A DNA stretch of 64,000 nt from a virus, in IMG/VR virus record IMGVR_UViG_3300014913_001094, positions 27,454 to 91,453 of that record, one strand, 5' to 3'. The notes under the pieces are model-generated. The model did not search any database, had not been told where the DNA came from, and saw only the letters and a program-made list of their open reading frames with translations. Shown piece by piece: positions 24,396-64,000 of this stretch (within the stretch, counting starts at the first letter, position 1; the number at the start of each line of letters is the position of its first letter). The position numbers and the translations under genes are program-made.

Positions 24396-27300
24396 ATGAC
24401 TACTGTCAGCATATGTATGATTGTTAAGAATGAGGAAGAGGTCCTTGCACGATGCCTCAAATCTCTCGGTAATTTTCCTGATCAATTAGTTATAGTAGAC
24501 ACAGGTTCAATAGATAGAACAATTGAAATTGCAAAGGAATTTGGAGCTGAAATTCATCACTTCGAATGGATACGAGACTTTGCCAAAGCGCGTAACTATT
24601 CCTTTAGTAAGGCAACTTGCGACTATGTTTTCTGGCTTGATGGCGACGATGAAATTGCACCAGAAGAGCTTGAAAAGCTAATGACTCTCAAATCTAATCT
24701 CACCAAAGATATGTATCTAATGGTTTATGATTACTTCCAAGATGCAGACGGTAATCCTAAATGTGATCTTTGGAGAGAGCGCCTTGTAAAACGAGAGTTG
24801 GGATTGAAGTGGCGCTATCCAATTCACGAATGTATCCCTATGGATCAGCGTCCTCTTGAAACAGAGCAAGTTCCAATTCGAATTACACACAAACGAACAG
24901 AGGCTGGATTTGCTAGCGACCTCAGCCGTAATATAGATATTCTTGAAAATGCTGTAAGAGGCGATTATGCCGACGATCCTCGTGTTAGATATTATTTAGC
25001 TAAAGAGATTCATGACAATAGAGATTTTGAAAGAGCATCAAGAGAGTACACAAAGTTTCTTAATATGAATGCCGGCTGGTATGAAGATAAATTATATGCA
25101 CAATTTAAATTAGCTCAGTGTTATTATGAAATGGGCTGCGACAAACAAAGGCAAGTAGAGAAATTTGAAAAGCAAGCAAGAGAAGCAAAGAATAGTAAGA
25201 AGCGAGAACAAGCAACAAGAGCAGCTAATCGCCGCAAGAAGCAGGTAAGTATACAGCATGATAATGCAAGAAAAGCCGCAAAGCAAGCGATTAAAAGCGA
25301 TTCTCAATTTGCAGAGCCATACTATGTTCTTGGTCAACTTGCAATGGATGAGCAAGATCATGATGAAGCCATCTACTGGTTTGAAAAAGCGTTTAGACCA
25401 TTTCCTAATGTTCTAAGTCCTATTCGAAGAGACTTTTATACATGGATGCCAGCTCTTCAGTTATGTGTATGTCACAGTAACCGTGGTGACTATGAACAAG
25501 CAAGCTATTACAATGAACAAGCTGCCAAGGAAAATCCACAACATTCTTCTATTATTCATAATACGAAATATTTTGCTGAGAAGCTTGAAGAAAAAACGCA
25601 AAGAAAAACTCCAGAAGGAGATATTTCTGTTAAGTTGAATCTTGGTAGTGGAAATAAAAGATACAAAGATTACACGAGTTGTGATCTGTTTCCAGGAGCA
25701 GAAGTAGATGAAGTATTTCCCCTAAATGATATTCCATATGAAGACCAAACCGTAGATGCAATTCATAGTGAACATTCTCTTGAGCATCTTCGTCATGTCG
25801 ACGCAAGGTCAGCCATACAAGAATGGGCACGAGTTTTGAAGCCAGGTGGAGAGTTGCATCTTCAGATTCCAGACCTTGAAGAGTGTTGTAGAAAATATAT
25901 AGAGGCAGTACAAAACGGAGATCGAAGACTACAACAATGGTATATGTATACAATATTCGGTATACAAAAATCACAAGCCGACGAGCCGGATGAAGGTCAA
26001 ATTCATTATACAGGATTTAATTTGGCTGAGATTTTAGACTTACTTAAAGATGCTGACTTCATAATAGATTATTATGGAAAATACGATGGACATAGTACGC
26101 CGTCTCTTGAGATAAGAGCTGTTAAAGCAATCGGTTCAATCAGAATAGGATGGTTGGGTCAAACATGTCTTGAAAGTCCACAGTATAGAATTCGAACACA
26201 CCATATAGATAGATGGCTTCGCAGCAGAGGATATCGTACAGAGATCTCCCAAAAAGATCAAAAGTATGACACTGTGATTGCTGATAACGGTACACCATAT
26301 AGGACAATACAACAATACAAGAAAGAGGGTTCAAGAGTAATTCTCAATTTATGTGAAGACTATGACACAATGCTTTCTAAAGAAGAGATGAAAGTAGAAC
26401 AAAGAAGATATGAGGTTGTAGATCTTATAGTATGTTGCTCTCATGCCCTAGCTGAGAAGTTGAAAAAATATAATACTGTTGTAATAGAAGACGCAGTTGA
26501 AGTCGATTTTAATTTAAACTGCACTTATGAAAACAAAGAACAATTGACAGTTGGTTGGATCGGTATGGGTGGTAATGTCGTTCATGCAGAAAGACTGCGT
26601 CCACTAATTGAAGAGCTAGGATATAAGCTTGTCACAATTCATGAACACGATAATGCAGATGTAAAGTGGGATTTGAACACTTGGCAACAAGAGTTAGCAA
26701 AATGTGATATGGCAATAGCTCCAATTGATCATCATAAGCAACCCAGCAAATCAAATAATAAACTGACAACATATATGGCTCTTGGTCTTCCTACTGTCGT
26801 CAGTCCACTAGATGCATATAAACACGTTGTTGATAATGGTCCTTCTAATTATCCATTTTACATTGCATATAATGATGAAGGATGGAAACATTGTTTGGCT
26901 TGTCTAGGAAATGTTGAGCATCGAAGAGAAATGGGATTTGACGCAAAAGAAAAAGCAAAAGAATATAGCCTTGATGCAATAGGTCAGAAATGGGTAGATG
27001 TCTTAATTGAAACTGACTGGATGAGCGATGAAGATTGGGATAAGTTATCTGTATCATCACTCGAAAGATTATATGAAGACGAAGATAGAGCAGAACAACT
27101 TGTTGATATAATTATTCCTACATATGGTAAAGATGATTATCTTCAAGCATGTATCAATAGCATTAAGACATGTACAACTGACTATCCATATAATATTATA
27201 GTTGTTGATAGCCTAAAGCTGGGACTGAATTTTTCTCAAGCAGTAAATCATGGAATTAGACAATCAACAGCATCGCATGTATGTATTATGAATGACGATG

Positions 27301-28280
27301 TAATAGTATCAAAAGGATGGTTAAAGCCATTGCTTGAAGAGTTAAAAGATGATGTTGGTTTTGCGAACCCATTGAGTAATTGCGACAAGGGATGGTTACA
27401 TAATTATGATCTTAAAGCAGGTGAAGTAAATCTGCTTCCTGGCGTTCATAAGCTAGGCGAGGTTGATCCATATGCAATTTATGATTTTAAATCTCCTTCT
27501 ACAAAAAGATATAAACGAGATTGGCTTCCTTTATACTGCACTTTAGCAACAAAAGAAGCTATTGAAAAAATAGGATATCTCGATGAAGAGTTTGAAACAG
27601 GAAGTGAAGATTTAGATTATTGTAAGAGAGCAGAAAAGCTTGGAATAAAATGTGCAGTAGCAGAAGATTCGTTTGTGTTTCATTTTGGAGGAGTGAGTCG
27701 CAAAGCACATGAAATGGAAGATCGTAGTGTTCATCAAGAAGAAGACACAAAGAATCAGAACAGAATTGGATTTAAATACAATCGTCCGCTCGTTGTAATC
27801 CAGTCAGGATTAGCCTATGAGGACTGGGATGCGAATACGTTAAGAGAAAAGGGTTGTGGTGGTAGTGAACTAGCTGCTTGTATGATGGCAGAAAATTTTG
27901 CTAAGCAGGGATACAGAGCGGTAGTATTTGCTCAAACAGGAAAACCGAAGCAGGTAATTAATCAAGTAGAGTGGTACGATCAAAGTGAGTGGTTGAATTT
28001 CATCGACATGAATCATATTAGTATCTGCGTTGTTTCGCGCTATGCAAACTATCTTGAAGATTCAATAAGAGCAGATCAGCTATGGCTCTGGACGCATGAT
28101 ATTTTTGCGATGTGTAGTAAGGTTGGAGATGTCGACTTAGTTCAAAAGAATTACGATAAGCTGACAGGAATTTTTGTATTATCCAAATGGCATGCCTGCT
28201 TTATGGCTGATTACCATGGGATATCAACAGAAAAGACATGGGTTACAGGAAATGGTATAAATTTGAAGGGAAGTGAATAA
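24396..28280 (+). CDS. Multidomain glycosyltransferase: GT2 - TPR - SAM methyltransferase - GT4-like - GT2 - N-terminal half of GT4
   Basis: SICMIVKNEE..VDTGS.D..DFAKARN..WLDGDD..IHE; TPR helices; KLNLGSG..HSLEH..RVLKPGG; KSNNKLTTYMALGLP; IIIPT..MNDDV..EDLDYC; GCGGSE..LWTHD..LSKWH..NGI. Confidence 0.9.
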   Translation: MTTVSICMIVKNEEEVLARCLKSLGNFPDQLVIVDTGSIDRTIEIAKEFGAEIHHFEWIRDFAKARNYSFSKATCDYVFWLDGDDEIAPEELEKLMTLKSNLTKDMYLMVYDYFQDADGNPKCDLWRERLVKRELGLKWRYPIHECIPMDQRPLETEQVPIRITHKRTEAGFASDLSRNIDILENAVRGDYADDPRVRYYLAKEIHDNRDFERASREYTKFLNMNAGWYEDKLYAQFKLAQCYYEMGCDKQRQVEKFEKQAREAKNSKKREQATRAANRRKKQVSIQHDNARKAAKQAIKSDSQFAEPYYVLGQLAMDEQDHDEAIYWFEKAFRPFPNVLSPIRRDFYTWMPALQLCVCHSNRGDYEQASYYNEQAAKENPQHSSIIHNTKYFAEKLEEKTQRKTPEGDISVKLNLGSGNKRYKDYTSCDLFPGAEVDEVFPLNDIPYEDQTVDAIHSEHSLEHLRHVDARSAIQEWARVLKPGGELHLQIPDLEECCRKYIEAVQNGDRRLQQWYMYTIFGIQKSQADEPDEGQIHYTGFNLAEILDLLKDADFIIDYYGKYDGHSTPSLEIRAVKAIGSIRIGWLGQTCLESPQYRIRTHHIDRWLRSRGYRTEISQKDQKYDTVIADNGTPYRTIQQYKKEGSRVILNLCEDYDTMLSKEEMKVEQRRYEVVDLIVCCSHALAEKLKKYNTVVIEDAVEVDFNLNCTYENKEQLTVGWIGMGGNVVHAERLRPLIEELGYKLVTIHEHDNADVKWDLNTWQQELAKCDMAIAPIDHHKQPSKSNNKLTTYMALGLPTVVSPLDAYKHVVDNGPSNYPFYIAYNDEGWKHCLACLGNVEHRREMGFDAKEKAKEYSLDAIGQKWVDVLIETDWMSDEDWDKLSVSSLERLYEDEDRAEQLVDIIIPTYGKDDYLQACINSIKTCTTDYPYNIIVVDSLKLGLNFSQAVNHGIRQSTASHVCIMNDDVIVSKGWLKPLLEELKDDVGFANPLSNCDKGWLHNYDLKAGEVNLLPGVHKLGEVDPYAIYDFKSPSTKRYKRDWLPLYCTLATKEAIEKIGYLDEEFETGSEDLDYCKRAEKLGIKCAVAEDSFVFHFGGVSRKAHEMEDRSVHQEEDTKNQNRIGFKYNRPLVVIQSGLAYEDWDANTLREKGCGGSELAACMMAENFAKQGYRAVVFAQTGKPKQVINQVEWYDQSEWLNFIDMNHISICVVSRYANYLEDSIRADQLWLWTHDIFAMCSKVGDVDLVQKNYDKLTGIFVLSKWHACFMADYHGISTEKTWVTGNGINLKGSE

Positions 28281-28885
28281 TGTCAATTGAGAATCCTAAA
28301 TTCATCTATTCCTCCTCTGCTGATAGAGGGCTCGATACACTTCTTTATTTATGGCAATTTATTCGTAAAGAGTTTCCAGAAGCAACCTTAGATGTTCTAT
28401 ACGGTTTTGAAAATTGGAAAAAGTCGATTCTTGCATCTGGAAATGAACAACAGAAGCAGTGGATGGAGTCAATTGAAGAAGGATTAAATCAACCTGGTGT
28501 CACCAACCATGGTCGTGTAAGTCAGGATGAGTTAGCTAAATACTGGCAACAGATGGATATATGGGCCTATCCAACAAGATTCACCGAGACATACTGCATA
28601 ACTGCGCTTGAGGCACAACTCTACAGAACAGCAATTGTCACAACTCGTCTTGCTGGTCTTATTGATACAGTTGGTGATCGTGGTATCTTGATTGATGGAG
28701 ATGCTTATACTAAAGAATATCGTGAACAATTTCTCAGTGAAGTTTTTGCAATTTTGCGTGATGATGAGCGTAGAGAAGTTATGTTAGATAAAGCAGAAAA
28801 ATGTGCCAAAAAACTAACATGGTCAAATCGTGCAAAAGAATGGACTGATGTATTTAAACAAAATGGTCTAACTTTTCCGAAATAG
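28280..28885 (+). CDS. C-terminal (donor-binding) half of a split GT4 glycosyltransferase
   Basis: FIYSSSADRGL, HGRVSQ, YPTRFTETYCITALEAQ; TAATG coupling to the upstream gene. Confidence 0.85.
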   Translation: MSIENPKFIYSSSADRGLDTLLYLWQFIRKEFPEATLDVLYGFENWKKSILASGNEQQKQWMESIEEGLNQPGVTNHGRVSQDELAKYWQQMDIWAYPTRFTETYCITALEAQLYRTAIVTTRLAGLIDTVGDRGILIDGDAYTKEYREQFLSEVFAILRDDERREVMLDKAEKCAKKLTWSNRAKEWTDVFKQNGLTFPK

Positions 28886-29216: not shown

Positions 29217-29249
29217 TCCCAAACCTATCGATTTTCTTCTCCTTAAATG
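29217..29249 (+). promoter_or_regulatory. Putative promoter, class B, upstream of the collagen genes
   Basis: TCCCAAACCTATCGATTTTCTTCTCCTTAAATG is a near copy of 7581-7616. Confidence 0.6.
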
Positions 29250-29306: not shown

Positions 29307-34052
<4,746 letters not shown>

Positions 34053-44061: not shown

Positions 44062-44075
44062 AAATCTATTGATAT
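44062..44075 (+). promoter_or_regulatory. Putative class B promoter of the glycosylation operon
   Basis: AAATCTATTGATAT has one mismatch to the 7588 core and lies between a terminator and the first GT gene. Confidence 0.5.
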
Positions 44076-50190: not shown

Positions 50191-50917
50191 ATATAAAGTT
50201 TCTGTTGTTATGCCAGTATATAATTGTGTTTTGTTTCTGCATGAGGCAGTTGATGGTATCCTTAATCAAACATTTAAGGATTTTGAATTTGTCATTGTTG
50301 AAGATTGTTCGACTGATGGATCAAAAGAAATTATCAAAGACTATGCTGATAGATATGCAAACATCAAGGTTATATGGCACGAGGTCAACAAGGGCTTAAG
50401 TCGGTCTCTTAATGATGGTCTCGCTGCAGCGTCTGGAGATTTGATTGCAATACAGCATGGGGACGATGTAAGTTTACCACAGAGATTAGAAAAGCAGGTA
50501 GCTTATCTAAAAGAGAACGAAAATGTTCACTTACTAAGTACGTGGGTGAAGTTAATAGATGAACATAGCAAAGCTGCAAGAAGAGATAGTTGGTGGATCA
50601 AGCAAATCAAAGGTACAGCAGATAATCCCGAAGTACTCAAACAAAAGATGTTAGAGATGAATATTTTTGTTCACACGAGTGTAATGTTTCGAAGTTCAGT
50701 AATAGATTCTGTGGGTACATATGGTCTTGATATGGTACCGGCTGAGGATTTTGATCTTTGGTTACGTATTGCAGACAATCATGACTTAGGAATCTTAAGA
50801 GAAGTCCTTTGTTTATATCGTCATCATTCAAATCAAATATCAGGAACAGATTCGGGTAATTTGATGAAAGCAAAGGCAGCAATAGCTATCGAGAGAGCAA
50901 AAGAGAGAAGAAAGTAA
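50183..50917 (+). CDS. GT2 glycosyltransferase
   Basis: VSVVMPVYN, IVEDCSTDGS, N.GL..SLN.G, RLEKQ, AEDFDLWLR. Confidence 0.92.
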   Translation: MNKYKVSVVMPVYNCVLFLHEAVDGILNQTFKDFEFVIVEDCSTDGSKEIIKDYADRYANIKVIWHEVNKGLSRSLNDGLAAASGDLIAIQHGDDVSLPQRLEKQVAYLKENENVHLLSTWVKLIDEHSKAARRDSWWIKQIKGTADNPEVLKQKMLEMNIFVHTSVMFRSSVIDSVGTYGLDMVPAEDFDLWLRIADNHDLGILREVLCLYRHHSNQISGTDSGNLMKAKAAIAIERAKERRK

Positions 50918-50921
50918 AATA

Positions 50922-53084: not shown

Positions 53085-53980
53085 TGCAAACAGCAGCGAT
53101 TATAGTGCCACAAGATAATATATTCTTTTCTGACCTAGCAAAGGCACTAGTAATGTCTTTTATGGAGCTTGGTTGGAATGTGATGTGGCTTGGTGATAAA
53201 GATCAAATTAGAGAATATGCAAGACAAATTGATCTAGCAGTTGTACTATCTCCCTTTGATTATAAAGATATTCGTAAAATACTTCCTCGGACGACCAAAG
53301 TTCTCTATCAACTAGAAGCTCTTCCTTGGCCTCAATGTGTTCATTTGAAGAGACGAAAGTATTGGAAGTGGGAAGAGCGCCTAGAAGCAATGAATTCTTA
53401 TGATGCTGTTTGGGAAGCTGACCTAGCCAACATCAAGGAACACTATAGGTATTACAATATTCGTAGACCATTGATTCATATGCCAGTTGGATATTCTTCT
53501 ATATTCGAGCTAGACAAGAGAGTGTCGCAAAGAAATATAGCCTTGTTTATTGGTGAAGATGGTAATCATCCTCGCGTAAAGCCAAGACGTCGAATAGTAC
53601 GAAGAGTCCAATCTCTAATACCTAAGCAGTTTAAGATTGTTAAGGGGCGTTATGGAGATAAAGCAAAGCAGTCAGCTAAGAATGCTCGAATCAATCTCAA
53701 CATTCATCAAAACAGAATGCAGAATTTAGAGAGTCTTCGAGTTGTTGGGCTTTTGATGAGTAATAAGTGTTTTGTCATGACAGAGCCTGTGCTTCACTCG
53801 CCCTTCGAGAACAACAAACACTGGGTAGTTGTTGAAGGTAAAGATATGGCAGCAGAAATTAAGTACTACCTTGAAATGGCAACTTGGGAAGTAGATCGAA
53901 TAGCTAAAGAGGGATACAACTTTGTCAAGAATCACTATACAATGACACAACATTTGAAGAAGGCGTTAGAGCAACTCTAA
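53084..53980 (+). CDS. GT-B glycosyltransferase, CgeB-like (paralog 1 of 3)
   Basis: INLNIH..ESLRV..MSNKCFVMTE..YYL..IAKEGY..HY. Confidence 0.75.
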   Translation: MQTAAIIVPQDNIFFSDLAKALVMSFMELGWNVMWLGDKDQIREYARQIDLAVVLSPFDYKDIRKILPRTTKVLYQLEALPWPQCVHLKRRKYWKWEERLEAMNSYDAVWEADLANIKEHYRYYNIRRPLIHMPVGYSSIFELDKRVSQRNIALFIGEDGNHPRVKPRRRIVRRVQSLIPKQFKIVKGRYGDKAKQSAKNARINLNIHQNRMQNLESLRVVGLLMSNKCFVMTEPVLHSPFENNKHWVVVEGKDMAAEIKYYLEMATWEVDRIAKEGYNFVKNHYTMTQHLKKALEQL

Positions 53981-53981
53981 A

Positions 53982-54527
53982 ATGGGACACAAATATAAAA
54001 AACCTAGACAGGTAAAAATCGGAAAGAATTCTTATTTTGGTAAGAATCTTCGCGTTATTGAAGGACATTCTCACTGTGTTCAAATTGGTGAATTCTGCTC
54101 ATTGGCTGCTGATATCACATTTTGTATGGTAACAGAACATAATTATCGTCGAGTAACAACCTATCCAGTCAAAATGAAGGTTCTTGGAATGGAATATGGA
54201 GTAGATGAACCAAGGGTTGCCTCTAAAGGTGATGTAATTGTAGGAAATGATGTGTGGATTGGATATGGAGCAACAATACTAAGTGGAGTAAATATAGGTC
54301 ATGGCGCGATCATAGCTGCATATGCCCTAGTGACTAAAGATGTTGAGCCCTATGCAATAGTGGGTGGTAATCCTGCAAAAGTAATTAAGTATCGTTTTGA
54401 ACCTCATCAAATAGAAGCTCTATTAGATATAGCATGGTGGAATTGGTCGATAGAAGTCTTGAGTGAGCGTTGTGATGACGTGTACATGGAGGATATTGAT
54501 GAATTCATCGCCAAATACAAAAATTAG
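53982..54527 (+). CDS. Hexapeptide-repeat O-acetyltransferase (CatB/Vat-like fold)
   Basis: IGEFCS, IVGNDVWIG, GVNIGHGA, VTKDVEPYAIVGGNPAKVIKYRF, WWNW. Confidence 0.92.
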   Translation: MGHKYKKPRQVKIGKNSYFGKNLRVIEGHSHCVQIGEFCSLAADITFCMVTEHNYRRVTTYPVKMKVLGMEYGVDEPRVASKGDVIVGNDVWIGYGATILSGVNIGHGAIIAAYALVTKDVEPYAIVGGNPAKVIKYRFEPHQIEALLDIAWWNWSIEVLSERCDDVYMEDIDEFIAKYKN

Positions 54528-55314
54528 TGCTATTTGGATTACAAAGAATAGTGAAAAATTTATTGGATATTCAATTGCTTCACTACTCTCTGTTGTTGAT
54601 CAGGTAATTGTAATGGATGCCGAATCTACAGATAATACACAAAGAATTGTCACTTCTTTTAAGAGTCCAAAAATACAATTTTCTGTTTTAGATCAAGATA
54701 TCTATAATATGAATCACAGTGCTAAGATTGGGTTTGAACATGCTACTGGGAATTTTGTTATGCTTCTTGGTGATGACTATGTCTGGGACAACAACAATGC
54801 TCAAAAATTAAGAGCAGCGGTAGAAGAATCTGAAGTTAATAAAACAAAGGGAGTGCGAGCGACAGTTTATAATATGTCAACTGACTCTGGACATTATTTT
54901 ACTAAATACCAAAAAGAGTATATTTTTCGAAGACAAGAAAAAGATCCACTCCTATGTTACGGTTCTTTTTTTGTAGATAGATTTTATATATTACACAAGA
55001 GTGAGGCGCGTAAATTTAAGAATGGTCTCCCAAGTGTCCGTTTTGCATCAAGCAGATATACAAAAGCAGGACTAGCTTTTTCCCATTGGAAATATCTTAA
55101 AGATACAAAAGATTATTTTATACATAAATATATTTTATATAGAAAAGATAAAAAAGAAACAATTGAGCAGCTTAGAAAAAAAGCAGAGTTAGCCTGGCAG
55201 ACAATAGAAAAGCAACGTCGATATCTTTTACCTCAAATTGTTCCAGAGGTCTTTGAAGATTATAGAGATCTTTTTGTGCCTCTTGGAGGATATGATATTC
55301 TGGAGGAGAAGTGA
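54499..55314 (+). CDS. GT2 glycosyltransferase
   Basis: ATG 54499 after GGAGG; ITKNSE, VMDAESTDNT, LLGDD. Confidence 0.8.
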   Translation: MNSSPNTKISAIWITKNSEKFIGYSIASLLSVVDQVIVMDAESTDNTQRIVTSFKSPKIQFSVLDQDIYNMNHSAKIGFEHATGNFVMLLGDDYVWDNNNAQKLRAAVEESEVNKTKGVRATVYNMSTDSGHYFTKYQKEYIFRRQEKDPLLCYGSFFVDRFYILHKSEARKFKNGLPSVRFASSRYTKAGLAFSHWKYLKDTKDYFIHKYILYRKDKKETIEQLRKKAELAWQTIEKQRRYLLPQIVPEVFEDYRDLFVPLGGYDILEEK

Positions 55315-56180
55315 AGATTTTAACAATAGCTCATCATTATGATCCTCTTGCTCGCTTTATAGCTACTGCTTTTCAGGAATGTTTTATTGAATTGGGATAT
55401 GAAGCTGAAATGCGGTCAGAATATGAGTCCGGATATGATATTAGTTTTGGAATGTACGCTCATTCGTCATATGGCACTCAAAATGACGGAACTTATAAGA
55501 TAGCATACAATTGGGAATCGTTAAGCCTCAAGATGTGGCACAGAAGGATATGTGGAGGAACACAATTTGATTGCATTTGGGACTGTGATGAGAATAATCT
55601 TCAATATACTACTCCTGGAGAGCACTTATGTTGTCCAATTGGATATCATGAGAAATTTGAACTTCCACAAGCGATAGGGCCTCACAATAAGATAGCATTC
55701 ATAGGAAATTCTCCAACAAGCAGTCGAAGAAGACGTAATCCAAATTCAAGAAAGTGGCATAGACGAAGGATAATAGAGAGCATAGAAAAACATACAGGTA
55801 CACAGGTGTGGTATGTTGAGGATAAGACTAAGCAAATACATACAGAGAAGTTGAGTCAAATCATACATAATACTGATGTTCATTTAAACATTCACAACAA
55901 TCCTCATAGTCCTATGTTTGAAAGCCTTAGAGTGATTGCAATGTTGCTAAGCAATAGAAAATTTGTAATAAGTGAACCAAGTAGAACCTCTCCTCTTATT
56001 GATAAAGAGCATTATATAGAAACTAATGATTTTTCTAATGTTGAATATTACCTACAACACCCAGAAGAATGTAAAGAGATTGCACAACGTGGATATGACT
56101 TTATCAAAGCTAAATATAAATTAATTGATCATGTTGCTGAGTGTTTCGATCAACTACCAGAGAGAGTTAAGAAGAGATGA
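55311..56180 (+). CDS. GT-B glycosyltransferase, CgeB-like (paralog 2 of 3)
   Basis: PIGYH, AFIG, LNIH..FESLRV..SNRKFVISE..IAQRGY. Confidence 0.75.
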   Translation: MKILTIAHHYDPLARFIATAFQECFIELGYEAEMRSEYESGYDISFGMYAHSSYGTQNDGTYKIAYNWESLSLKMWHRRICGGTQFDCIWDCDENNLQYTTPGEHLCCPIGYHEKFELPQAIGPHNKIAFIGNSPTSSRRRRNPNSRKWHRRRIIESIEKHTGTQVWYVEDKTKQIHTEKLSQIIHNTDVHLNIHNNPHSPMFESLRVIAMLLSNRKFVISEPSRTSPLIDKEHYIETNDFSNVEYYLQHPEECKEIAQRGYDFIKAKYKLIDHVAECFDQLPERVKKR

Positions 56181-56806
56181 AAGATAGACATCGTAAAAAG
56201 TTAATTGAGTTGATAGAGAGAGCTGATCAAGCTCGTCGAGATTGGGAAAATCTTGCTGTACGTGCTTATAAAATTCATCCAAAGCAAATCTTTAGTCCTA
56301 GAGAGGCTAATTTTATACGATTCATTCAGTCTGACGACTTCATTCTAGATCTTGGCTGTGGTAATGCAAAAACTCTCAAGGCTCTCGCAGAGAAGTGTAG
56401 AGGCGGAATTGGTATAGAAAGTAGCCCTGTATGTCATAAAGATTCGAAGAGATTCAATAGCAGTAAGATCAGAATCATAGAAGACAACTTCTTTAATGTC
56501 CTACCTGGATTAGCTGGGCAATATACCGTAACTCTGATGTCTCATGTCTTAGAACATGTGATTGAGCCAATACCATTGTTACAACAATTGACAAGTGAAA
56601 AGCTTCTCTTACTTGTTCCTACTAATACTTGGGAGTTTAAAATGAGAGATGACCTTGGTATACATTCTACTCGTCAGCCAGATCATTATAGAGAATACGA
56701 TAAGGATTTGTTAACTAGTGAACTACAAGCAAGCGGATGGCAATCAGAATATATGGAATATACAGAAGAAGAAGAACTTCTATGTTTTGCAAGGAGAGTA
56801 AGATGA
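56177..56806 (+). CDS. Class I SAM-dependent methyltransferase
   Basis: ILDLGCG, GIE, SHVLEHV, VP, HYREY. Confidence 0.9.
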   Translation: MKDRHRKKLIELIERADQARRDWENLAVRAYKIHPKQIFSPREANFIRFIQSDDFILDLGCGNAKTLKALAEKCRGGIGIESSPVCHKDSKRFNSSKIRIIEDNFFNVLPGLAGQYTVTLMSHVLEHVIEPIPLLQQLTSEKLLLLVPTNTWEFKMRDDLGIHSTRQPDHYREYDKDLLTSELQASGWQSEYMEYTEEEELLCFARRVR

Positions 56807-57810
56807 AAATAGCATTTATTTGTCCGGATGGCCTCGACGTAAGAGGTGGTGTAAAAAGAATTTGCGAATATGCCATGAGACTCGGTCATCGCGGTCATGA
56901 TGTGTATGTTTTAACTAAAGATACAATAATGCCTGAATGGTTAAAAGATTATGATAGCTTTAAGTTAGCACCAATCAAAGACTATAGACATTTTAAAACC
57001 GATGTTGCTATCGCTACGGGTGGCCGAGCTGCTCGTCGCCTTGGTAGAATGACAAAAGTAAAAGTCAAAGTATACTCAGTAGTAATGTTGGAAAGTATGA
57101 ATAAGCCAACCGAAAAGCACGGGAAAAAGATTGATCGTGATAGATTCCTTTCTGATCCCTATGGTCAAAATTGGCTTTATTATGCCAACTCCACATGGAT
57201 GCGGGATATAGTAGAAAAAGATTTTAATCAAAAGTGTGAATTGGTGTTGGCACCAAGTCACGAAAGAATGAGGCCTGTAGCAAGCATTAAGCCAAAAAAC
57301 AGAGTATGGGCCCTTGGTTATGGTGGGACAAGCGATTGGAAAGGTGGAGGCAGGACAGCAGAGGCAGTTGGATTAGCAAAGAAACATATATCAGGACTGC
57401 AGATGATTCATTATTCTCAACGCAGCATACCAAAGCAAAGAAGAATTATTGCAAAACACTGGAGCTGTCCGGATCAAGATTTTCTACCAACAATCTACAG
57501 CTCAGCAGATGTATTTATTCATTCGTCCAGATTTGAAGGTTGGGCAAACACCTGCATGGAAGCAATCAGCTGTGGAACACCAGTTGTTTCTTACAAGACT
57601 CCTGGAATTGAAGATATTGTAATCAATAATAAGACAGGTATTGTAGTAGATACGTTTGATCCAACTCATATGGCCCGCGCTATGGTAAGACTATTGCAAG
57701 ATAAGCCGAGATATGAGGCAATGAAGATTCGATGCATTGAGCATGCGGCCACCTTTTGTTGGGATGTAACTTTGTCAAAGTTAGAGCAAATTTTTGAAGC
57801 ACGCCTTTAA
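56803..57810 (+). CDS. GT4 glycosyltransferase
   Basis: ATG 56803 after AAGGAG; GGV..L..RGHDV, WKG, SRFEGW...MEAISCGTPVV. Confidence 0.9.
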   Translation: MKIAFICPDGLDVRGGVKRICEYAMRLGHRGHDVYVLTKDTIMPEWLKDYDSFKLAPIKDYRHFKTDVAIATGGRAARRLGRMTKVKVKVYSVVMLESMNKPTEKHGKKIDRDRFLSDPYGQNWLYYANSTWMRDIVEKDFNQKCELVLAPSHERMRPVASIKPKNRVWALGYGGTSDWKGGGRTAEAVGLAKKHISGLQMIHYSQRSIPKQRRIIAKHWSCPDQDFLPTIYSSADVFIHSSRFEGWANTCMEAISCGTPVVSYKTPGIEDIVINNKTGIVVDTFDPTHMARAMVRLLQDKPRYEAMKIRCIEHAATFCWDVTLSKLEQIFEARL

Positions 57811-57821
57811 AAGAGGATAAG

Positions 57822-58634
57822 ATGAAAAGAATACTCGTAGTATGTCCCCCAAATAAGATATTTGGTAGATTTGCGGAAGCCTGTGTAGATAGTCTTGACA
57901 ATCTTGGCTATGAAGTGGTTTTACAGAAAGAGTATTCTGCTGACTTTGACATAGCTCTCTTTTTCGATTTTTATGCAGAACATAATATTGTGGACGACAC
58001 CTATAAGGTAGGATATAATTTTGAACCTCTGTGGGTAGGTAGATGGAGAAGACAGATATCGCAGAAGCAACATCAATATGATTGTATTTTTGATGCGAGC
58101 TATCTCAACTGCTCCTACTCTAAAATTTGTAAGCCACATATCTTTTGTCCTATAGGATATCATCCTATGTTTGAATGTTTAGAGACAGTAGAGAAGAAAG
58201 AAAAAATTATCTTCATTGGTGATCTTAGTAAGTATAGACAGAAAATAATACAAAGGATTTCCACAAAAACTGCCAAAACAGTAAAAGTAATTACAGGAAA
58301 ATACTGGCAAGAGTTAGAAAAAGATTCATCTGGCATTTATCTCAACATACATGGCCACCGCAGTAAGTTTATATTTGAAGGTGCACGCATAATAGGAGTT
58401 TTGATGAGTAACAAGTGCTTTGTTATCAGTGAGACTTGTAAATGGAGCCCACTAAAGAATGGGATACATTATGTCGAAGCTCACTGGTCTTCTATGCCAG
58501 AGAAGGTTCAATATTATCTTAATAATCCTCTCAAAAGAGAAAAAATAGCGCAACAAGGATATGATTTTATAAAAACGCAATACAGATTTCAAGATCACAT
58601 AAAAAGAGCAATGGAGCAAATATGTCAAAAATAG
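57822..58634 (+). CDS. GT-B glycosyltransferase, CgeB-like (paralog 3 of 3)
   Basis: PIGYHP, IFIG, LNIH..FE..RI..MSNKCFVISE..IAQQGY. Confidence 0.75.
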   Translation: MKRILVVCPPNKIFGRFAEACVDSLDNLGYEVVLQKEYSADFDIALFFDFYAEHNIVDDTYKVGYNFEPLWVGRWRRQISQKQHQYDCIFDASYLNCSYSKICKPHIFCPIGYHPMFECLETVEKKEKIIFIGDLSKYRQKIIQRISTKTAKTVKVITGKYWQELEKDSSGIYLNIHGHRSKFIFEGARIIGVLMSNKCFVISETCKWSPLKNGIHYVEAHWSSMPEKVQYYLNNPLKREKIAQQGYDFIKTQYRFQDHIKRAMEQICQK

Positions 58635-59335
58635 GAATAGGAGTCTGTACATATAATCGCTTAGATCTACTTCAGAAGTGTTTGAGTGGCTTTGCAAACA
58701 CAATCTCTTCAACATGTCGATTGATAATATCTTCTGATGGAAGTACAGATGGGACTGATAAGTGGTTAGGCCAACAGAGCCACGACTGGATATCGGGACC
58801 AAATGTGGGAATAGCTAAAAATAAAAATCGCTTACTCAATGTGCTAGATGATTGTGATTATATATTTTTAATTGAGGATGATATAGTAATAAAAAATTCG
58901 AAGTGGATTGAATGGTATATCAGAACATCACAAGAAAGCGGTATACAGCATTTTTCTTATCATAATAAGATTCAAAGAGCGCGAAGAAATACAACACACT
59001 ATGCAACAACAACAACAATAGGGGATCATGGAACAACAGGACAATTGATGTTTTTTACAAAAGAGGTTTTAAAAAGATGTGGAGGCTTCAATGAACAATA
59101 TGCTGGACATGGCTATGAACATCTTGAATATACAAAACGAATTAATTTTGCTTTTCAATATGGACCTTTATTTCTAGATAGCTTAGAAGGACATCTATGT
59201 ATTCATGCACCCACAACAAAATCTTCCACTCAGGCTACAGGTAAAAACGGAAAACTATATAAACATTTTAAGAGATATTATCAAAGAGACTTTGAACGAT
59301 TTCGCTATTGTGAATATAAGGGAGAACAAAGATGA
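58622..59335 (+). CDS. GT2 glycosyltransferase
   Basis: CTYNR, SDGSTDGT, N.GIA.NKN, LIEDD, GGFNE.Y..GYEH. Confidence 0.9.
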   Translation: MSKIGIGVCTYNRLDLLQKCLSGFANTISSTCRLIISSDGSTDGTDKWLGQQSHDWISGPNVGIAKNKNRLLNVLDDCDYIFLIEDDIVIKNSKWIEWYIRTSQESGIQHFSYHNKIQRARRNTTHYATTTTIGDHGTTGQLMFFTKEVLKRCGGFNEQYAGHGYEHLEYTKRINFAFQYGPLFLDSLEGHLCIHAPTTKSSTQATGKNGKLYKHFKRYYQRDFERFRYCEYKGEQR

Positions 59336-60087
59336 TCCCACTCAAAGTAGCTCCTGACAATGGTAATTGGGGAGACATATTGTCGCCAGTTTTGATTAAA
59401 AAACTTACAGGCATAGATATGCCAGTTGTTTATGGAAATACGCACAGGAAGCAAGCACATCTTTTAGCAATTGGAAGTCTTTTGAGATGGGCAAATAAAA
59501 ATACCACAGTCTGGGGCACTGGGTTTTTGTCAAATTCAATGAAGGTAAAAGGAAGACCTCATATCTGTGCTGTACGTGGACCATCAACTCGAGAGAGATT
59601 ACAACAATTGGGAATCGATTGTCCTGAGATATATGGTGATCCAGCACTGTTGTATCCTCGTTTTTATAATCCAAAAGTTGAAACTAAGTTTGATTTGGGA
59701 ATTATACCTCATTATTGTGAGAAAGATTTATATAAACATTTGAATCAAAATGGTGTCCTTACGATAGATATCTGTGCAGGAATAGATTCTGTTGTAGATC
59801 AAGTTAAGAGTTGTAAGAAAATAATATCAAGCTCACTTCACGGATTGATTGTAGCTGATGCATATCAGATTCCCTCTCTTTGGATTGAGGCCTCAAGTGA
59901 GGTTCTTGGTAAAGGATTTAAATTCATAGACTATTTTAGGTCTGTTGGTCGATCTGACAGAAGCTCCTTTAAAGTCAATAAAGAAACTACGCTTGAACTG
60001 ATTGAGAATCAGTTTTCTCAATACAAAATAGATATTGATCTCGACAAGTTAGCTAATTCATTCCCAATTCATCTATTGGAAAAATAA
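59332..60087 (+). CDS. Polysaccharide pyruvyltransferase (ExoV-like)
   Basis: NWGD.LS, IGS, VWGTG, AVRGP.T, GDPALL, IIPHY, SSSLHGLI.ADAY.IP, FKF.DY. Confidence 0.92.
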   Translation: MIPLKVAPDNGNWGDILSPVLIKKLTGIDMPVVYGNTHRKQAHLLAIGSLLRWANKNTTVWGTGFLSNSMKVKGRPHICAVRGPSTRERLQQLGIDCPEIYGDPALLYPRFYNPKVETKFDLGIIPHYCEKDLYKHLNQNGVLTIDICAGIDSVVDQVKSCKKIISSSLHGLIVADAYQIPSLWIEASSEVLGKGFKFIDYFRSVGRSDRSSFKVNKETTLELIENQFSQYKIDIDLDKLANSFPIHLLEK

Positions 60088-60088
60088 A

Positions 60089-60841
60089 ATGTTAGATATG
60101 ATGACAGACATGGAAGTGGTAGAGAGTGTGCGCCGGCATATTTCTCACAATACTCCTTTTGCTTTGATGCGACTAGGGGATGGAGAAATGTATTTACTAA
60201 GAGGAACATCACCACGGTCTGGATTTTGGAATAAATATGTGCAAGTTTGGGGTTTTGAGGAAGAAAAGCAAGCTCTCGACTCTGTTGGCAAATATACGCT
60301 TAAAGCTCTGAGAGAAGCAGATGTTGTAGGTCTCTTAGATAAGAGGGTAGCTAAAAGGATGTACATTCGCCTCAGAGAGGAAGATTGGATTCCTACAAAG
60401 GAAGAACTAAAAAAATGGAGGGTTAATCTTGATTCTAGAAAAATATGTAGTCATCAGATTGTGAGGACAAGAGAATTAGGAACAGTGGAAGCGTGGCAAA
60501 AGCTCCTGGCCGGTCGTCCTGTTCATATCATAAGCTGCAATGTAGAACAGTTGAAGAAAAACAAGATTTCCAGCTTACTAAAGGCTGATGTTTCTTATAC
60601 TCAAGTACCCAATCCGACTTCGCTTTTGGATCGAGAAGAGATATTGAAGAGTTTAGAAAACATTAAGCCTAGTGTGGTTCTTTTTGGATTAAGCGTGCTT
60701 GGAAAAGATATAGGAATAACTTTAAGAGATGAATATGGAAAAATATCCATAGACATGGGAGCTACATTAGATGCTTGGGCAGGGCTTGAAACCAGACCAT
60801 GGTTCAAAAAAGATGGGGGACAGGAGTACCTAGTTGTATGA
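60089..60841 (+). CDS. GT-D-fold (DUF1792-like) glycosyltransferase
   Basis: F..MRLGDGE, ADVVG, GK..I..G..SIDMG..LDAW. Confidence 0.75.
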   Translation: MLDMMTDMEVVESVRRHISHNTPFALMRLGDGEMYLLRGTSPRSGFWNKYVQVWGFEEEKQALDSVGKYTLKALREADVVGLLDKRVAKRMYIRLREEDWIPTKEELKKWRVNLDSRKICSHQIVRTRELGTVEAWQKLLAGRPVHIISCNVEQLKKNKISSLLKADVSYTQVPNPTSLLDREEILKSLENIKPSVVLFGLSVLGKDIGITLRDEYGKISIDMGATLDAWAGLETRPWFKKDGGQEYLVV

Positions 60842-61386
60842 AGTTACATATTGGATGTGGAAAAAAGGCTCTTGAGGGATGGATTAATATAGATATTAAA
60901 GATCATCCTTGGATAGACTTAAAACATAACATTTTACAACCTTTACCATATGATAAAAATACCATAGATTATATTTTTAATGAACATGTATTTGAACATT
61001 TTACTCAGCGTGAGGGAATGAAGATACTTAGAGATTGGCATCGAGTCTTGAGTCTCACCGGTGTTATAAGGATAGCAATGCCAGGACTAAAAGATAGTAT
61101 TGCAAAGTATCTCGATGGCTCTTGGCGCAATGAGCCTTGGGTAAAAAAGCTCAAATTTCGTAGAAGAACAGATGCAGAGTATTTAAATCTTCTTTTTTAT
61201 GGAACCTTAGATAGATATCATCATAAGTGTATATATGATTTTGAATTGTTGAAGAGAAATTTAGAGAGAGCAGGATTTAGAAACGTACAACAGCAAGTAC
61301 ATCATCAAAGTTCATACATAGAGTTATGTAATATAGAGGGCAGATCTGCAGCAGAAAGTAATTTGATAATAGAAGCGGTGAAGTAA
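60838..61386 (+). CDS. Class I SAM-dependent methyltransferase
   Basis: ATG 60838 after AGGAG; KLHIGCG..GWINID, EHVFEHF, RVL..G..RIA.P. Confidence 0.9.
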   Translation: MKLHIGCGKKALEGWINIDIKDHPWIDLKHNILQPLPYDKNTIDYIFNEHVFEHFTQREGMKILRDWHRVLSLTGVIRIAMPGLKDSIAKYLDGSWRNEPWVKKLKFRRRTDAEYLNLLFYGTLDRYHHKCIYDFELLKRNLERAGFRNVQQQVHHQSSYIELCNIEGRSAAESNLIIEAVK

Positions 61387-61962
61387 GTGGTTTTTTTAAC
61401 TGAAGTGGCCTTGAAGAATTTAGGCTTTAACAATATAGGAGACAATGTTCTCATTAGTGACAAGGCCTCAATATATGGTGCAGAGAATGTTTCTATTGGA
61501 GACAATGTAAGAATAGATGATTTTTGCATACTCAGTGCAATAGGTGGATATATTGATCTAGGAAGCCATATCCATATTGCAGCATATGTTTCTTTATTTG
61601 GAGGAGGCGGAATAGTAATTGAGGATTTTTGTGGAGTTTCTTCCTATACTTGCATCTACTCAGTTAATGATAACTATAATGGAGATTATTTGATGGGTCC
61701 AGAAATAGATAGCGATCTCACAGATGTAACAAAAGCAGAGGTAAGGCTGTGTAGATATGTCACATGTGGTACACACTCTGTAGTCCTACCAGGTGTTAGA
61801 TTAAATGAAGGAACAGTACTTGGAGCTTGCTCACTAGCAACAAAAGAACAAAACGAGTGGCAAATTTATGCAGGGGTGCCTGCAAAAGAAATTAAAGCTC
61901 GCAAAAGAGGACTATTATCAAAGGCTAAAGAGATGGAGAAGAGATGGCAGCGAAAATCATAA
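61387..61962 (+). CDS. vioB: Hexapeptide acyltransferase, VioB-like (NDP-4-amino-4,6-dideoxyhexose N-acyltransferase)
   Basis: LGF..IG.NVLISDKASIYG...IGDNVRIDDFCILS..HIA..D.Y.G..L; lies close to a VioA-like gene. Confidence 0.7.
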   Translation: MVFLTEVALKNLGFNNIGDNVLISDKASIYGAENVSIGDNVRIDDFCILSAIGGYIDLGSHIHIAAYVSLFGGGGIVIEDFCGVSSYTCIYSVNDNYNGDYLMGPEIDSDLTDVTKAEVRLCRYVTCGTHSVVLPGVRLNEGTVLGACSLATKEQNEWQIYAGVPAKEIKARKRGLLSKAKEMEKRWQRKS

Positions 61963-61974: not shown

Positions 61975-62571
61975 ATGGTACTGATTAGAAAACCATTTAT
62001 TGGATTAGGTACTGGTAGAATGGGTACAACAAGTCTTCAAAAGTTAGTCGGAGCGTGTCAAAATACAATAGTTGGTCACGAGCAGAAACAATATCTCACT
62101 GCGTGGCATGAAGATAAGAATATACATAAAATTGATCGATTAATTGAATGGCTCGAAAGCAATGCTCAAAAAGGACTTTTAGTTGGTGAAGTGACTCCAA
62201 GCTTAGTACCAAGAGTTGACTATATTCGAGATAAGATAGATGTTAAGATTATATGTTTACATAGATCTAAGGAAGAAGTAGTAGAGTCATATATGAAAAA
62301 ATGCAAAAACAGGTCACTTATACTTCCTGATCAAAAATGGAGTAATTGGTGCAAATATGCACCGACAATTTCAGCTAAAGATGTGAGAACATCGTATGAG
62401 GCATATTGGGAATTGTATGAGAGAGTTGCAGCCGATATAACAGATGCATATCATTTTAATACACACGACTTGAGCAACAAAAAAAGTCTTGAACAGTTGT
62501 TCAAGTTTTTAGATATTCCTAAAGGGGATTGGGAATTTCTAAAGAAGACAAAATGGAATATCGGTTGTTAG
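61975..62571 (+). CDS. P-loop sulfotransferase-like protein
   Basis: IGLGTGRMGTTSL (5'-PSB-like), HE, KIICLHR..EVVES (3'-PB-like), L..FL. Confidence 0.75.
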   Translation: MVLIRKPFIGLGTGRMGTTSLQKLVGACQNTIVGHEQKQYLTAWHEDKNIHKIDRLIEWLESNAQKGLLVGEVTPSLVPRVDYIRDKIDVKIICLHRSKEEVVESYMKKCKNRSLILPDQKWSNWCKYAPTISAKDVRTSYEAYWELYERVAADITDAYHFNTHDLSNKKSLEQLFKFLDIPKGDWEFLKKTKWNIGC

Positions 62572-62589
62572 CAAGGAGAGAGACGGGTT

Positions 62590-63678
62590 ATGATTCCTTT
62601 TATAAAGCCAATTTTACCTTCTGCTGAAAGATATCAACAGCATATTTATGATATGCACGAAAACGAATGGTTTTCTAACAATGGTCCCCTTGTGCAGCAG
62701 TTTGAAAAGGCCTTACAGAAATATCTTAAAACACAAAGGGAAATCGTTGTAGTATCTAATGCAACAATAGGACTCATTCTTGCCCTCAAGGGACTACAAG
62801 AAATACAAGATCTCAAACAAGTGATAGTCCCCTCCTTTACATTTGCTGCCACAATAGCAGCGATAGAGTGGTGCAAAATGGATTATAAATATGTAGACAT
62901 AGACTCTACCTGGTCAGCTAGTGTTGAAGATGTTGAGAGGCTCTTAAGAGAAGGTGAGTTTGAAGCATTGATGCCAGTTCATACCTTTGGAGGTCCATGT
63001 AGGATTGAAGAGCTTGAAAGCATTGCAAAGAAGAACAACATAAAGTTGATCTTTGACGCAGCCCCAGCAATGGGATCGCTTTATCGTAATCAGCCTATAG
63101 GTAACTTTGGAGATATAGAAGTTTTCAGTCTCCATGCTACAAAAGTTCTTCCTGTTGGAGAGGGTGGCTTTCTTAGCATTAAAGACAAGGAAGTGGCAGA
63201 TCACGTAAGGCAGCTTAAAAATTTTGGATTTGATAGCAATAAAATAGTAGCATCGAATGGGCTAAATGGAAAGATGCCAGAGATGATGGCAGCCATAGGA
63301 ATAGAAGCTCTCAAGGATGTTGATCAGCATCTTCGAAATAGAAAGATGTATATTGAAAAATACAAAGAAATTCTTGGAGATATGGTTCAATATCAAGAAG
63401 TAATACCTGATAGTTCACATTCATTTCAATCTCTGGGTGTTTTGGTAGAGAATGCAGAGCAAGTTGTTTTTGAGATGGAAAAGCGAGATATTCAAGTGCG
63501 TCGATATTTTTCAGATCCTATGCATACTCATCTTGCCTATCGTCAATGTGGAACTGATCTTTCGATGACAAATCGTGTAGCAAAAGAGATTATAAATTTA
63601 CCACTTTACTCAATTATGGATGAACACACAATAGAGTGTGTATGTTCTAATTTAAAGGATATTATTAATGGATCATAA
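62590..63678 (+). CDS. vioA: DegT/DnrJ/EryC1/StrS PLP aminotransferase, VioA-like
   Basis: KP.LP, W.SNNGP..FE, NAT..L, PSFTF.AT, DAA, FSLHATK..GEGG, NGKM.E, RRYF. Confidence 0.8.
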   Translation: MIPFIKPILPSAERYQQHIYDMHENEWFSNNGPLVQQFEKALQKYLKTQREIVVVSNATIGLILALKGLQEIQDLKQVIVPSFTFAATIAAIEWCKMDYKYVDIDSTWSASVEDVERLLREGEFEALMPVHTFGGPCRIEELESIAKKNNIKLIFDAAPAMGSLYRNQPIGNFGDIEVFSLHATKVLPVGEGGFLSIKDKEVADHVRQLKNFGFDSNKIVASNGLNGKMPEMMAAIGIEALKDVDQHLRNRKMYIEKYKEILGDMVQYQEVIPDSSHSFQSLGVLVENAEQVVFEMEKRDIQVRRYFSDPMHTHLAYRQCGTDLSMTNRVAKEIINLPLYSIMDEHTIECVCSNLKDIINGS

Positions 63679-64000
63679 AAAATACATTCACTCACAAGCT
63701 AAGAGATTTTCTGGTGAAAATCATCAAGCACAGGGAAGATTGAAGCAAGCATTTAAGTTTTTTAAACCGATTGTTAAGTCTGACAAACCGTTACTCGACA
63801 TTGGTAGTCGAGATGGGTGGTTTATAGAGTTTTTAGAGCGAAAACGTTATAAGGATGTTCAGGGAATTGAAATTACCAAAAACGCTGTAGCGCATGCTCA
63901 ATCAAAAGGACGCAACGTGACATGGGGTGATGCGCATGATCTTTCAAGATTTATTGATGAGCAATTTACAACAGTTTTGATGATTCATAGTCTTGAACAT
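63668..64000 (+). CDS. Class I SAM-dependent methyltransferase (3' truncated; absent from the ORF track)
   Basis: ATG 63668: MDHKKY..LLDIGSRDG..GIEI..GDAHDL..HSLEH; open to the window end. Confidence 0.85.
   Translation, partial: MDHKKYIHSQAKRFSGENHQAQGRLKQAFKFFKPIVKSDKPLLDIGSRDGWFIEFLERKRYKDVQGIEITKNAVAHAQSKGRNVTWGDAHDLSRFIDEQFTTVLMIHSLEH

Follow-up and report, generated by a model that had tools for sequence, protein, structure and literature searches.

Which molecules do the glycosyltransferases (GTs) of a phage act on when their genes lie beside genes for giant collagen-like fibres? The question is raised by a stretch of 64,000 nucleotides from IMG/VR virus record IMGVR_UViG_3300014913_001094 (positions 27,454 to 91,453 of the record), here called the window, whose features are numbered from its first letter and, as given below, all lie on the + strand. 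The window encodes a six-module enzyme, which we designated the lead enzyme, followed by two collagen-like fibres and, further downstream, an operon with 15 GT genes. An earlier note, made from the sequence alone, had proposed that a tailed phage builds a complex glycan directly on its own fibres. We put at roughly 60% the probability that the window holds a late-gene island of a tailed phage of the phage G clade, encoding very long, proline-poor collagen-like fibres that would be O-glycosylated in the host cytoplasm. The tailed phage, the enzyme family, its linkage to collagens and the lack of lipid-carrier machinery in that proposal all stood up to analysis; action of the operon on the fibres was not shown.

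Linkage of the lead-enzyme family to collagen genes

IMG/VR was scanned with an alignment of the lead-enzyme family, and 80 loci were recovered, of which 51 remained after dereplication at 90% identity. Collagens were called in all six frames as G-X-Y runs of at least 24 residues. Such runs were carried by 30 of the 51 dereplicated phage loci with a homologue of the lead enzyme's first module, and in 28 of these 30 the run lay upstream, on the same strand and within 5 kb. Thr occupied 50-90% of the Y positions in most collagen-bearing phage loci, and several of the 21 loci without a collagen simply had no upstream sequence. Two sets of loci served as controls: collagens were found at 3 of 80 loci anchored on the capsid gene, and at 1 of 78 loci anchored on homologues of the operon GT2 encoded at 50183 (Fisher p ~1e-14).

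Collagens of the G-X-Thr type were also present within 6 kb at 52 of the best 80 cellular loci, which came mostly from endospore formers (the Bacillus cereus group, Clostridium, Paenibacillus, Romboutsia and Thermoactinomyces). Among 61 genomes of the Romboutsia family, 38 encode first-module homologues of 356-379 amino acids (aa), and in a 4.2-Mb genome of this family the gene for a 365-aa homologue immediately precedes a GPT collagen gene and shares its strand. These counts support a specific link, in phages as well as in spore-forming bacteria, between the enzyme family and genes for G-X-Thr collagens, and glycosylation of the collagens by the lead enzyme is well supported by this association.

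Enzyme and collagens were both present in genomes G005-G009, which include phages of 424 and 470 kb (G005 and G006) and in which collagen open reading frames (ORFs) reach 3081 aa; the collagen of locus L095 is of the same Pro-free G-X-T/G-X-Q type. The earlier note had suggested a test of co-occurrence among genomes sharing the capsid protein, and there the absence of one went with the absence of the other: capsid-clade genomes G001-G004 carry other GT2 genes and have neither a Pfam collagen match nor the lead enzyme. Phage G itself has a single weak collagen match and no lead-type enzyme. Two further capsid-clade fragments, G010 and G011, encode GAQ/GAD collagens without Thr, and no GT2-TPR enzyme was seen in these 21-36%-complete pieces.

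The 230-255 kb region of G006 (469,617 bp, with terminal repeats) encodes collagen ORFs of 2338 and 3081 aa, longer than the fibres of the window, which flank a GT2 gene (877-aa ORF).

Module structure and relatives of the lead enzyme

The lead enzyme (24396-28280, 1294 aa) was resolved by Pfam into GT2, putative TPR, methyltransferase, GT4 and GT2 modules and the N-terminal half of a second GT4. The C-terminal half of this last GT4 module (Pfam Glycos_transf_1) is encoded by the next gene, 28280-28885, which overlaps the first by 1 nt; at 28278-28282 the sequence TAATG forms the overlap where the module splits over two ORFs. The same six-module architecture was found in about 30 metagenomic proteins with 39-52% identity. 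Longer homologues (1436-1484 aa) carry the last GT4 whole and fused. The lead enzyme is matched in its shorter length by its two nearest homologues (1288 and 1267 aa), and for this reason the split is probably real and not introduced by faulty sequencing.

The GT2 domain was matched by Pfam Glycos_transf_2 with an E value of 1.9e-38 for the whole protein, the best stretch being residues 5-147. When residues 1-420 were compared by sequence with solved structures, the matches were Listeria GmaR, which transfers O-GlcNAc to flagellin (9e-23), SunS (6e-12) and a related 7msk chain; yolJ of SPbeta was also among the matches to the GT2 domain. Residues D75, D77 and D78, aspartates of the DxD type that would bind metal and nucleotide sugar, were invariant in 21 homologues and aligned with GmaR. 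Designed TPR proteins matched residues 237-389, a region that is kept in the homologues. The earlier note had presented GT2-TPR enzymes as protein glycosylators, and GmaR and SunS are indeed the closest solved relatives of residues 1-420. Judged by sequence, assignment of the first module to the protein-glycosylating GT2 family (GmaR/SgtA/SunS-like) is supported.

Predicted structure of the collagen-like fibres

Collagen-like fibre 1 (29307-34052, 1581 aa; Pfam Collagen E 8e-175) contains 1278 G-X-Y residues in 19 runs, together with an internal globular domain of 143 aa and a C-terminal domain of 115 aa. Fibre 2 (34064-38974, 1636 aa; Pfam Collagen E 8e-197) consists of a 191-aa N-terminal domain, a stalk with 1314 G-X-Y residues and a C-terminal domain of 123 aa. 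At 0.286 nm per residue, the predicted rod length of each is about 370 nm. A third collagen segment, of 93 residues (Pfam Collagen E 1e-13), lies within a tail-fibre-like protein of 683 aa (21558-23609), and the PHROG tail-fibre matches of this protein (E 3e-18) fall mainly on that segment.

Gln and Thr were the residues found most often at the Y position, with counts of 157 and 149 in fibre 1, 226 and 144 in fibre 2, and 13 and 12 in the short segment of the tail-fibre-like protein. The three collagen-bearing fibres described in the earlier note were thus recovered, the shortest of them outside the region 24396-64000 to which that note refers, and its statement that Thr or Gln fills nearly every Y position had to be reduced to 72-84%. 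At the X position, fibres 1 and 2 mostly have Ile, Val or Leu, and their Pro content is just 1.3-1.5% of residues, so that the imino-acid or charge content typical of stable bacterial collagens was not found in these fibres. With so little Pro, another stabiliser is plausible, for example glycosylated Thr, as in Riftia cuticle collagen.

The G-X-Y register is broken 18 times in fibre 1, mostly by two-residue insertions that often end in Gln (e.g. G-V-G-V-Q-G), and 4 times in fibre 2. The breaks in fibre 1 may act as flexible kinks.

Sequence searches with the fibre termini against solved structures gave no match. The 124-residue C-terminus of fibre 2 was modelled with AlphaFold2 as an eight-stranded jelly roll (pLDDT 79, pTM 0.74). 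Foldseek comparison of this knob with the PDB returned ExsFA/BxpB as the top match, followed by C1q and collagen X NC1 (E ~2e-4, TM ~0.5), and further matches included TNF ligands and phage fibre knobs. Comparison with BFVD returned phage collagen-repeat and minor-tail proteins (TM 0.6-0.74). The C-terminus of fibre 2 is accordingly modelled here as a predicted C1q/TNF-type jelly-roll knob, which would give the fibre a layout of collagen stalk and trimerising distal knob. Among 1.8 billion representatives the domain had six weak relatives, one of which, P0117 (1357 aa), carries it in a protein with a non-collagen middle.

Directly after the collagen genes lies an orphan gene (38985-40154) for a protein of 389 aa, for which no relative was found in Pfam, PHROG, IMG/VR or the ESM Atlas. 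An N-terminal "docking module" common to the proteins encoded at 34064, 38985 and 6965 was considered and rejected; the three are alike by eye, and BLASTP gave E values of 0.5 or worse.

The GT operon and its tailoring enzymes

The GT operon (44131-60841) contains 15 GT genes by Pfam. Seven encode GT2 enzymes (starting at 44131, 46022, 47367, 48275, 50183, 54463 and 58622), six encode GT4/GT1 enzymes (44886, 49111, 53084, 55311, 56737 and 57822), one encodes a GT2+GT1 fusion (50922) and one a GT-D-fold protein (60089), which is also matched by NCBIfam GT-D_rel. No close IMG/VR relative was found for the fusion or for the GT-D protein. Elsewhere in the window, a double GT1/GT4-type protein (8489-10501) has two stretches matching Pfam Glycos_transf_1 and internal BLAST matches to the operon GT4 genes. 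The earlier note had counted 19 GT genes in all, including the 15 of the operon. The operon count was reproduced, and the genes at 24396, 28280 and 8489 raise the number with Pfam support to 18. The remaining one, at 5508-6401, is a possible GT with a weak match to a PHROG glycosyltransferase (E 2.6e-4) and no Pfam match; a 61% identical homologue is encoded in post-capsid position in L005.

Genes for enzymes that could tailor a glycan are interspersed with the GT genes and follow them. They encode a hexapeptide O-acetyltransferase of the Vat/CatB type (53982-54527), an S-adenosylmethionine-dependent methyltransferase (56177-56806), a polysaccharide pyruvyl transferase (59332-60087; Pfam PS_pyruv_trans E 1.3e-14), a methyltransferase (60799-61386) that shares 28% identity with the corresponding module of the lead enzyme, a hexapeptide sugar acyltransferase that resembles WbbJ, WcaF and the NeuD/PglB/VioB family (61387-61962), a DegT/DesI/PseC-type sugar aminotransferase (62590-63678; Pfam E 4.6e-81, also matched by NCBIfam) and a further methyltransferase (63668-64000). 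This last gene is cut by the contig end, so the operon runs past the record. The acyl-, methyl-, pyruvyl- and aminotransferases listed in the earlier note were thus found again, as two hexapeptide acyltransferases, three stand-alone methyltransferases and one fused, one pyruvyl transferase and one DegT aminotransferase. Its sulfotransferase was not confirmed: the 198-aa protein encoded at 61975-62571 matched Sulfotransfer_4 with an E value of 0.097, below threshold, and had no NCBIfam match. No gene for a 4,6-dehydratase was found in the window.

An endonuclease VII/HNH gene (46855-47370; Pfam Endonuclease_7 E 7e-20) sits exactly between the paralogous GT2 genes at 46022 and 47367, which are 41% identical. 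Its position suggests a homing endonuclease at a duplication junction.

The motif AAHCTATYGAT occurs three times in the window, where 0.44 copies are expected by chance, and all three copies are intergenic. They lie at 7589-7599, 74 nt before the start at 7663; at 29222-29232, 85 nt before the first collagen gene (29307); and at 44063-44073, 68 nt before the GT operon (44131). The sites ahead of 7663 and 29307 are alike over about 35 nt. The claim that one motif precedes both the collagen genes and the GT operon was therefore confirmed, at 68-85 nt upstream of the two starts, and a promoter-like motif common to both units would point to their co-regulation. A hairpin resembling an intrinsic terminator, with a 12-bp stem and a T run (44002-44029), closes the unit that precedes the operon. 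The tie between operon and collagens consists of proximity, strand and this shared upstream motif, and we propose a functional connection on that footing.

Searches for membrane machinery

When the 89 ORFs of the contig were all scanned for hydropathy by the Kyte-Doolittle scale, no multi-pass membrane protein was found and none with more than one hydrophobic segment. Profile searches were made on the contig and on four relatives (G001, G003, G005 and G006) that are 98-100% complete by CheckV; in two of these four, giant collagens accompany the enzyme. An initiating phosphoglycosyl transferase (Bac_transf PF02397 or Glycos_transf_4 PF00953) was found neither in the contig nor in any of the four, and neither was a Wzx-type flippase (Polysacc_synt, PF01943); no Wzy-family profile search was made. 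The Pfam profiles and the hydropathy scan thus agree with the earlier note that flippase, initiating transferase and multi-pass proteins are lacking, on a contig that is about 54% complete. Particles of a lytic phage are freed by lysis, so fibres glycosylated in the cytoplasm would need no export.

Identity of the phage and genes around the fibres

The IMG/VR record comprises 91,453 bp with no terminal repeat, and the window is its last 64 kb. CheckV placed completeness at about 54%, implying a genome of about 170 kb. All 89 called ORFs lie on one strand with a coding density of 98%, strand use and G+C are even outside the collagen repeats, and no tRNA genes were found. The 27 kb upstream of the window, on the same contig and strand, encode TerL (phrog_675, 1e-70), a portal protein (7e-59) and a prohead protease. 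The parent contig therefore has terminase and portal genes, and in size it is a 91-kb fragment.

The major capsid protein (1013-2056; phrog_2522 E 4.7e-68) belongs to a clade related to phage G. It is 53% identical to gp27 of Bacillus phage G, the closest named relative, and 29% identical to the capsids of cluster C mycobacteriophages, which come next; its IMG/VR relatives number 338, some on contigs of 316-442 kb. The capsid gene reported in the earlier note is thus present, outside the region 24396-64000 that the note described, and TerL, portal, prohead protease and an HK97-type capsid protein bear out the tailed phage. By these sequence matches, the source is a tailed phage of a clade with very large genomes.

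Between the collagen genes and the operon lies a gene for a conserved structural-module protein (41235-42497), with 22 relatives by tblastn. Its homologues in relatives sit 5-9 kb past the capsid gene, and its position there marks it as the far end of an accessory island of about 38 kb that starts after the capsid gene. The same slot also holds collagen genes in a few relatives (L037, L040 and L083). The structural model of the protein was poor (pLDDT 50) and confident only in an Ig-like part, residues 62-160. Its Cys-rich N-terminus (11 Cys in the first 55 residues) has no counterpart in relatives and is followed by the Ig-like domain and a conserved helical C-terminus.

Several other genes were noted. 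An IMPDH/GMP-reductase-like gene and two neighbours (4026-6401) are common to L005, with 33-61% identity and the same post-capsid position, and form the sole part of the island that is conserved in a relative. The first of them (4026-5090), labelled "dehydrogenase" by PHROGs, was considered as a sugar dehydratase and rejected in favour of the IMPDH/GMP-reductase-like assignment. A xylose-isomerase-like TIM-barrel protein (10476-11243) is encoded between the double GT1 gene and a gene for a 649-aa protein with an HATPase_c_3 (MORC/Hsp90-like) ATPase domain (11240-13189). Among the fibre genes, a protein encoded at 14353-15804 joins a class I GluRS/GluQRS-like core (tRNA-synt_1c, E 3e-30) to an F5/8 type C discoidin domain. 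A pair of LamG-domain paralogues with 41% identity is encoded at 13452-14336 of the window and at 25695-26591 of the genome; their last ~65 residues are 60-67% identical to protein tails in the closest relatives, L004 and L005, and may form a shared attachment or targeting tail. The structural region also includes genes for two trypsin-like serine proteases, at 3024-3848 (with an N-terminal hydrophobic segment) and at 19772-20656.

Discussion

The most likely account of these sequences is that the fibres of the virion are glycosylated within the host cell by enzymes of the phage itself, to an extent unreported for phage. The first module of the lead enzyme, with its GmaR/SgtA/SunS-like GT2 domain and TPR-like helices, would recognise the G-X-Thr repeats and place the first sugar on Thr. 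The fused methyltransferase, GT4 and GT2 modules and the split GT4 would then lengthen and methylate that sugar. The separately transcribed 15-GT operon, with its aminotransferase, acyl-, methyl- and pyruvyl-transferase genes, would supply unusual sugars and might add further glycans, or bigger ones, to the fibres and perhaps to other proteins of the virion. The fibres would trimerise from C-terminal C1q/TNF-like knobs and be mounted on the virion before lysis, with no export step. In this scheme we infer which residues accept the sugar, in what order the steps follow, what the operon acts on and where the fibres sit; the role of the operon and a virion "glycocalyx" are likewise proposals.

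Several observations weigh against this scheme. Comparative evidence links only the first module of the lead enzyme to collagens, and the homologues of an ordinary operon GT2 were not so linked. The TPR matches fell below the curated thresholds (TPR_16, 30.0 bits with a cut-off of 32.7; TPR_2, 25.9 with a cut-off of 27). Gln is as common as Thr at the Y position, or commoner, and formation of a triple helix from a nearly Pro-free sequence is putative. Relatives in the capsid clade carry GT clusters without collagens. The record, about 54% complete, ends inside the operon, and genes for export or DNA modification could lie beyond it. A fuller picture would combine all parts of the locus: a heteroglycan with methyl, acyl and pyruvyl groups, made in the cytoplasm by about 19 GTs, would coat and stabilise the triple helix of nearly Pro-free G-X-Thr/G-X-Gln fibres of about 370 nm, as a counterpart of the mimivirus fibril layer and the BclA nap and as the largest phage glycosylation apparatus known. 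We hold this picture only tentatively and think it more probably wrong in some part than right.

A serious rival, though on balance an unlikely one, divides the targets: the six-module enzyme would act on the collagens and the operon mainly on other virion proteins (capsid, tail tube or other fibres), much as mycobacteriophages glycosylate their virions, with no single giant fibre glycan. The 1 in 78 collagen count for operon GT2 homologues favours this division, as does the placement of the operon in its own transcription unit behind a terminator. The collagen-free GT clusters of relatives also imply that the capsid or other proteins may be targets. In another phage, with the circular 42.6-kb genome L174 (MW202524.1), a GT cluster directly follows the capsid gene. 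There the region 1656-11978 holds the capsid gene, one small ORF, a gene for a 762-aa GmaR-like GT and five glyco genes, with no collagen, and is a candidate capsid-glycosylation cassette. Against divided targets stand the upstream motif that the operon has in common with the collagen unit and its location next to the fibre genes; nor was any acceptor-like Ser/Thr-rich tail noticed on the capsid protein, although no systematic search was made.

Three further readings move the target away from the virion or the locus away from the phage. GT genes near phage fibres are routinely taken as modifiers of DNA or of host O-antigen (PMC7029224, PMC10202952), and the array might accordingly remodel or build an envelope glycan of the host (for superinfection exclusion, or on capsule or teichoic acid), with lipid carrier, initiating transferase and exporters all provided by the host. 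Loci for surface polysaccharides typically contain acetyl-, pyruvyl- and aminotransferases, and the contig is incomplete. We nevertheless regard a host-surface target as improbable, because the contig encodes no initiating transferase, flippase or multi-pass protein, the PF02397, PF00953 and PF01943 families were also missing from the four 98-100%-complete relatives, the lead enzyme comes from a protein-glycosylating, collagen-linked family, and the genes form part of the structural region, on the strand of the late genes. Hypermodification of DNA, in which the GTs would add sugars to hydroxymethylated phage bases, is very improbable. Phage GTs do build mono- to trisaccharides on 5-hydroxymethylcytosine, sometimes near structural genes (10.1101/2023.12.21.572611; PMC13326640), but such glycans need one to three GTs and not the ~19 seen here, and the nearest solved relatives of the lead enzyme act on proteins. 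No match of the cytosine methyltransferase, TET/5mYOX or hydroxymethylase type was found in the scanned ORFs, which comprised those of the window (Pfam and/or PHROGs) and the ten largest of the upstream 27 kb (PHROGs only). Misassembly of bacterial DNA, such as an exosporium locus, onto phage DNA would fit the finding that, among cellular organisms, spore-forming Bacillota have the nearest homologues of the lead enzyme, yet it is scarcely credible when strand and G+C are uniform outside the collagen repeats, a putative homing-endonuclease gene lies within the operon, the conserved phage structural gene at 41235 stands between collagens and operon, and two independent phage records of 424 and 470 kb pair lead-enzyme homologues with giant collagens.

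In the literature we found no paper that ties phage collagen-like fibres to phage GTs; where the two features are met together, the GTs have been interpreted as acting on DNA or O-antigen. The linkage statistics point to what appears to be a widespread practice among phages, in which their own collagen-like fibres are glycosylated by an enzyme family common to spore formers. If true, this would revise the view of receptor-binding fibres, of phage antigenicity and of phage stability; it would offer soluble enzymes for glycosylating designed collagen materials, and a testable idea for the stability of collagen without proline or hydroxyproline.

Comparison with known systems

The closest parallels in mechanism are SgtA-BclA3 and the BclA nap. 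In SgtA-BclA3 of Clostridioides difficile, SgtA (358 aa) adds O-GlcNAc to Thr of the BclA3 GPT repeats in vitro and the gene for a soluble GT adjoins a gene for a G-X-Thr collagen-like protein, as in the Romboutsia-family genome described above (PMC7157674). Homology of the phage first module to SgtA itself is something we infer. In contrast to SgtA, the phage module heads a six-module enzyme of 1294 aa in a phage rather than a spore setting, and the phage collagens are 3-5 times longer, Pro-poor and Gln-rich.

The BclA nap of Bacillus anthracis and B. cereus carries oligosaccharides capped by anthrose, an N-acylated, O-methylated 4-amino-4,6-dideoxy sugar (PMC6222408, PMC10050317). Like BclA, fibre 2 has a collagen stalk with Thr at Y and is predicted to end in a C1q/TNF-like trimeric knob, for which ExsFA/BxpB headed the matches, and the island encodes an aminotransferase, acyltransferases and methyltransferases that match the chemistry of that glycan. 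The phage differs in having far more GT genes and in the 4,6-dehydratase, which the window did not yield.

Listeria GmaR and Caulobacter FlmG are cytoplasmic flagellin O-glycosyltransferases with TPR modules (PMC9638930, PMC3150276, PMC7591256). They resemble the proposed system in combining GT and TPR parts and in glycosylating a structural protein while it is still in the cytoplasm, ahead of its assembly outside, whereas their acceptor is flagellin, they have no fused extension modules, and GmaR doubles as an anti-repressor. SunS and ThuS (PDB 7msn, 7msp and 7msk) share a homologous GT2 domain, are encoded by the SPbeta prophage and act on a peptide substrate; unlike the lead enzyme, they are single-module enzymes, and they S-glycosylate a bacteriocin Cys.

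Among viruses, the fibril clusters of Mimivirus and the Megavirinae comprise 6-33 genes that place bacterial-type sugars on virion fibrils independently of the host, and they too include aminotransferase, acetyltransferase, pyruvyltransferase and multi-domain GT genes (PMC9614988). They belong to eukaryotic giant viruses, and the fibril protein is a GMC oxidoreductase, not a collagen. Mycobacteriophages resemble the present phage in having GT genes beside structural genes and virion proteins as the target. Their virion glycosylation, reportedly described by Freeman et al. in 2023, is said to involve one to few GTs acting on capsid and tail-tube subunits, compared with about 19 GT genes and collagen fibres here. 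To our knowledge, it is only recently that phage particles have been shown to be glycosylated, and the enzymes concerned are few and act on capsid and tail-tube proteins of mycobacteriophages. Set beside these systems, the locus would represent an extreme form of a known kind of system, in which a soluble GT2-TPR enzyme glycosylates collagen-like surface fibres, and would be distinguished by its scale, with about 19 GT genes within 60 kb, a six-module lead enzyme and a pair of fibres each about 370 nm long.

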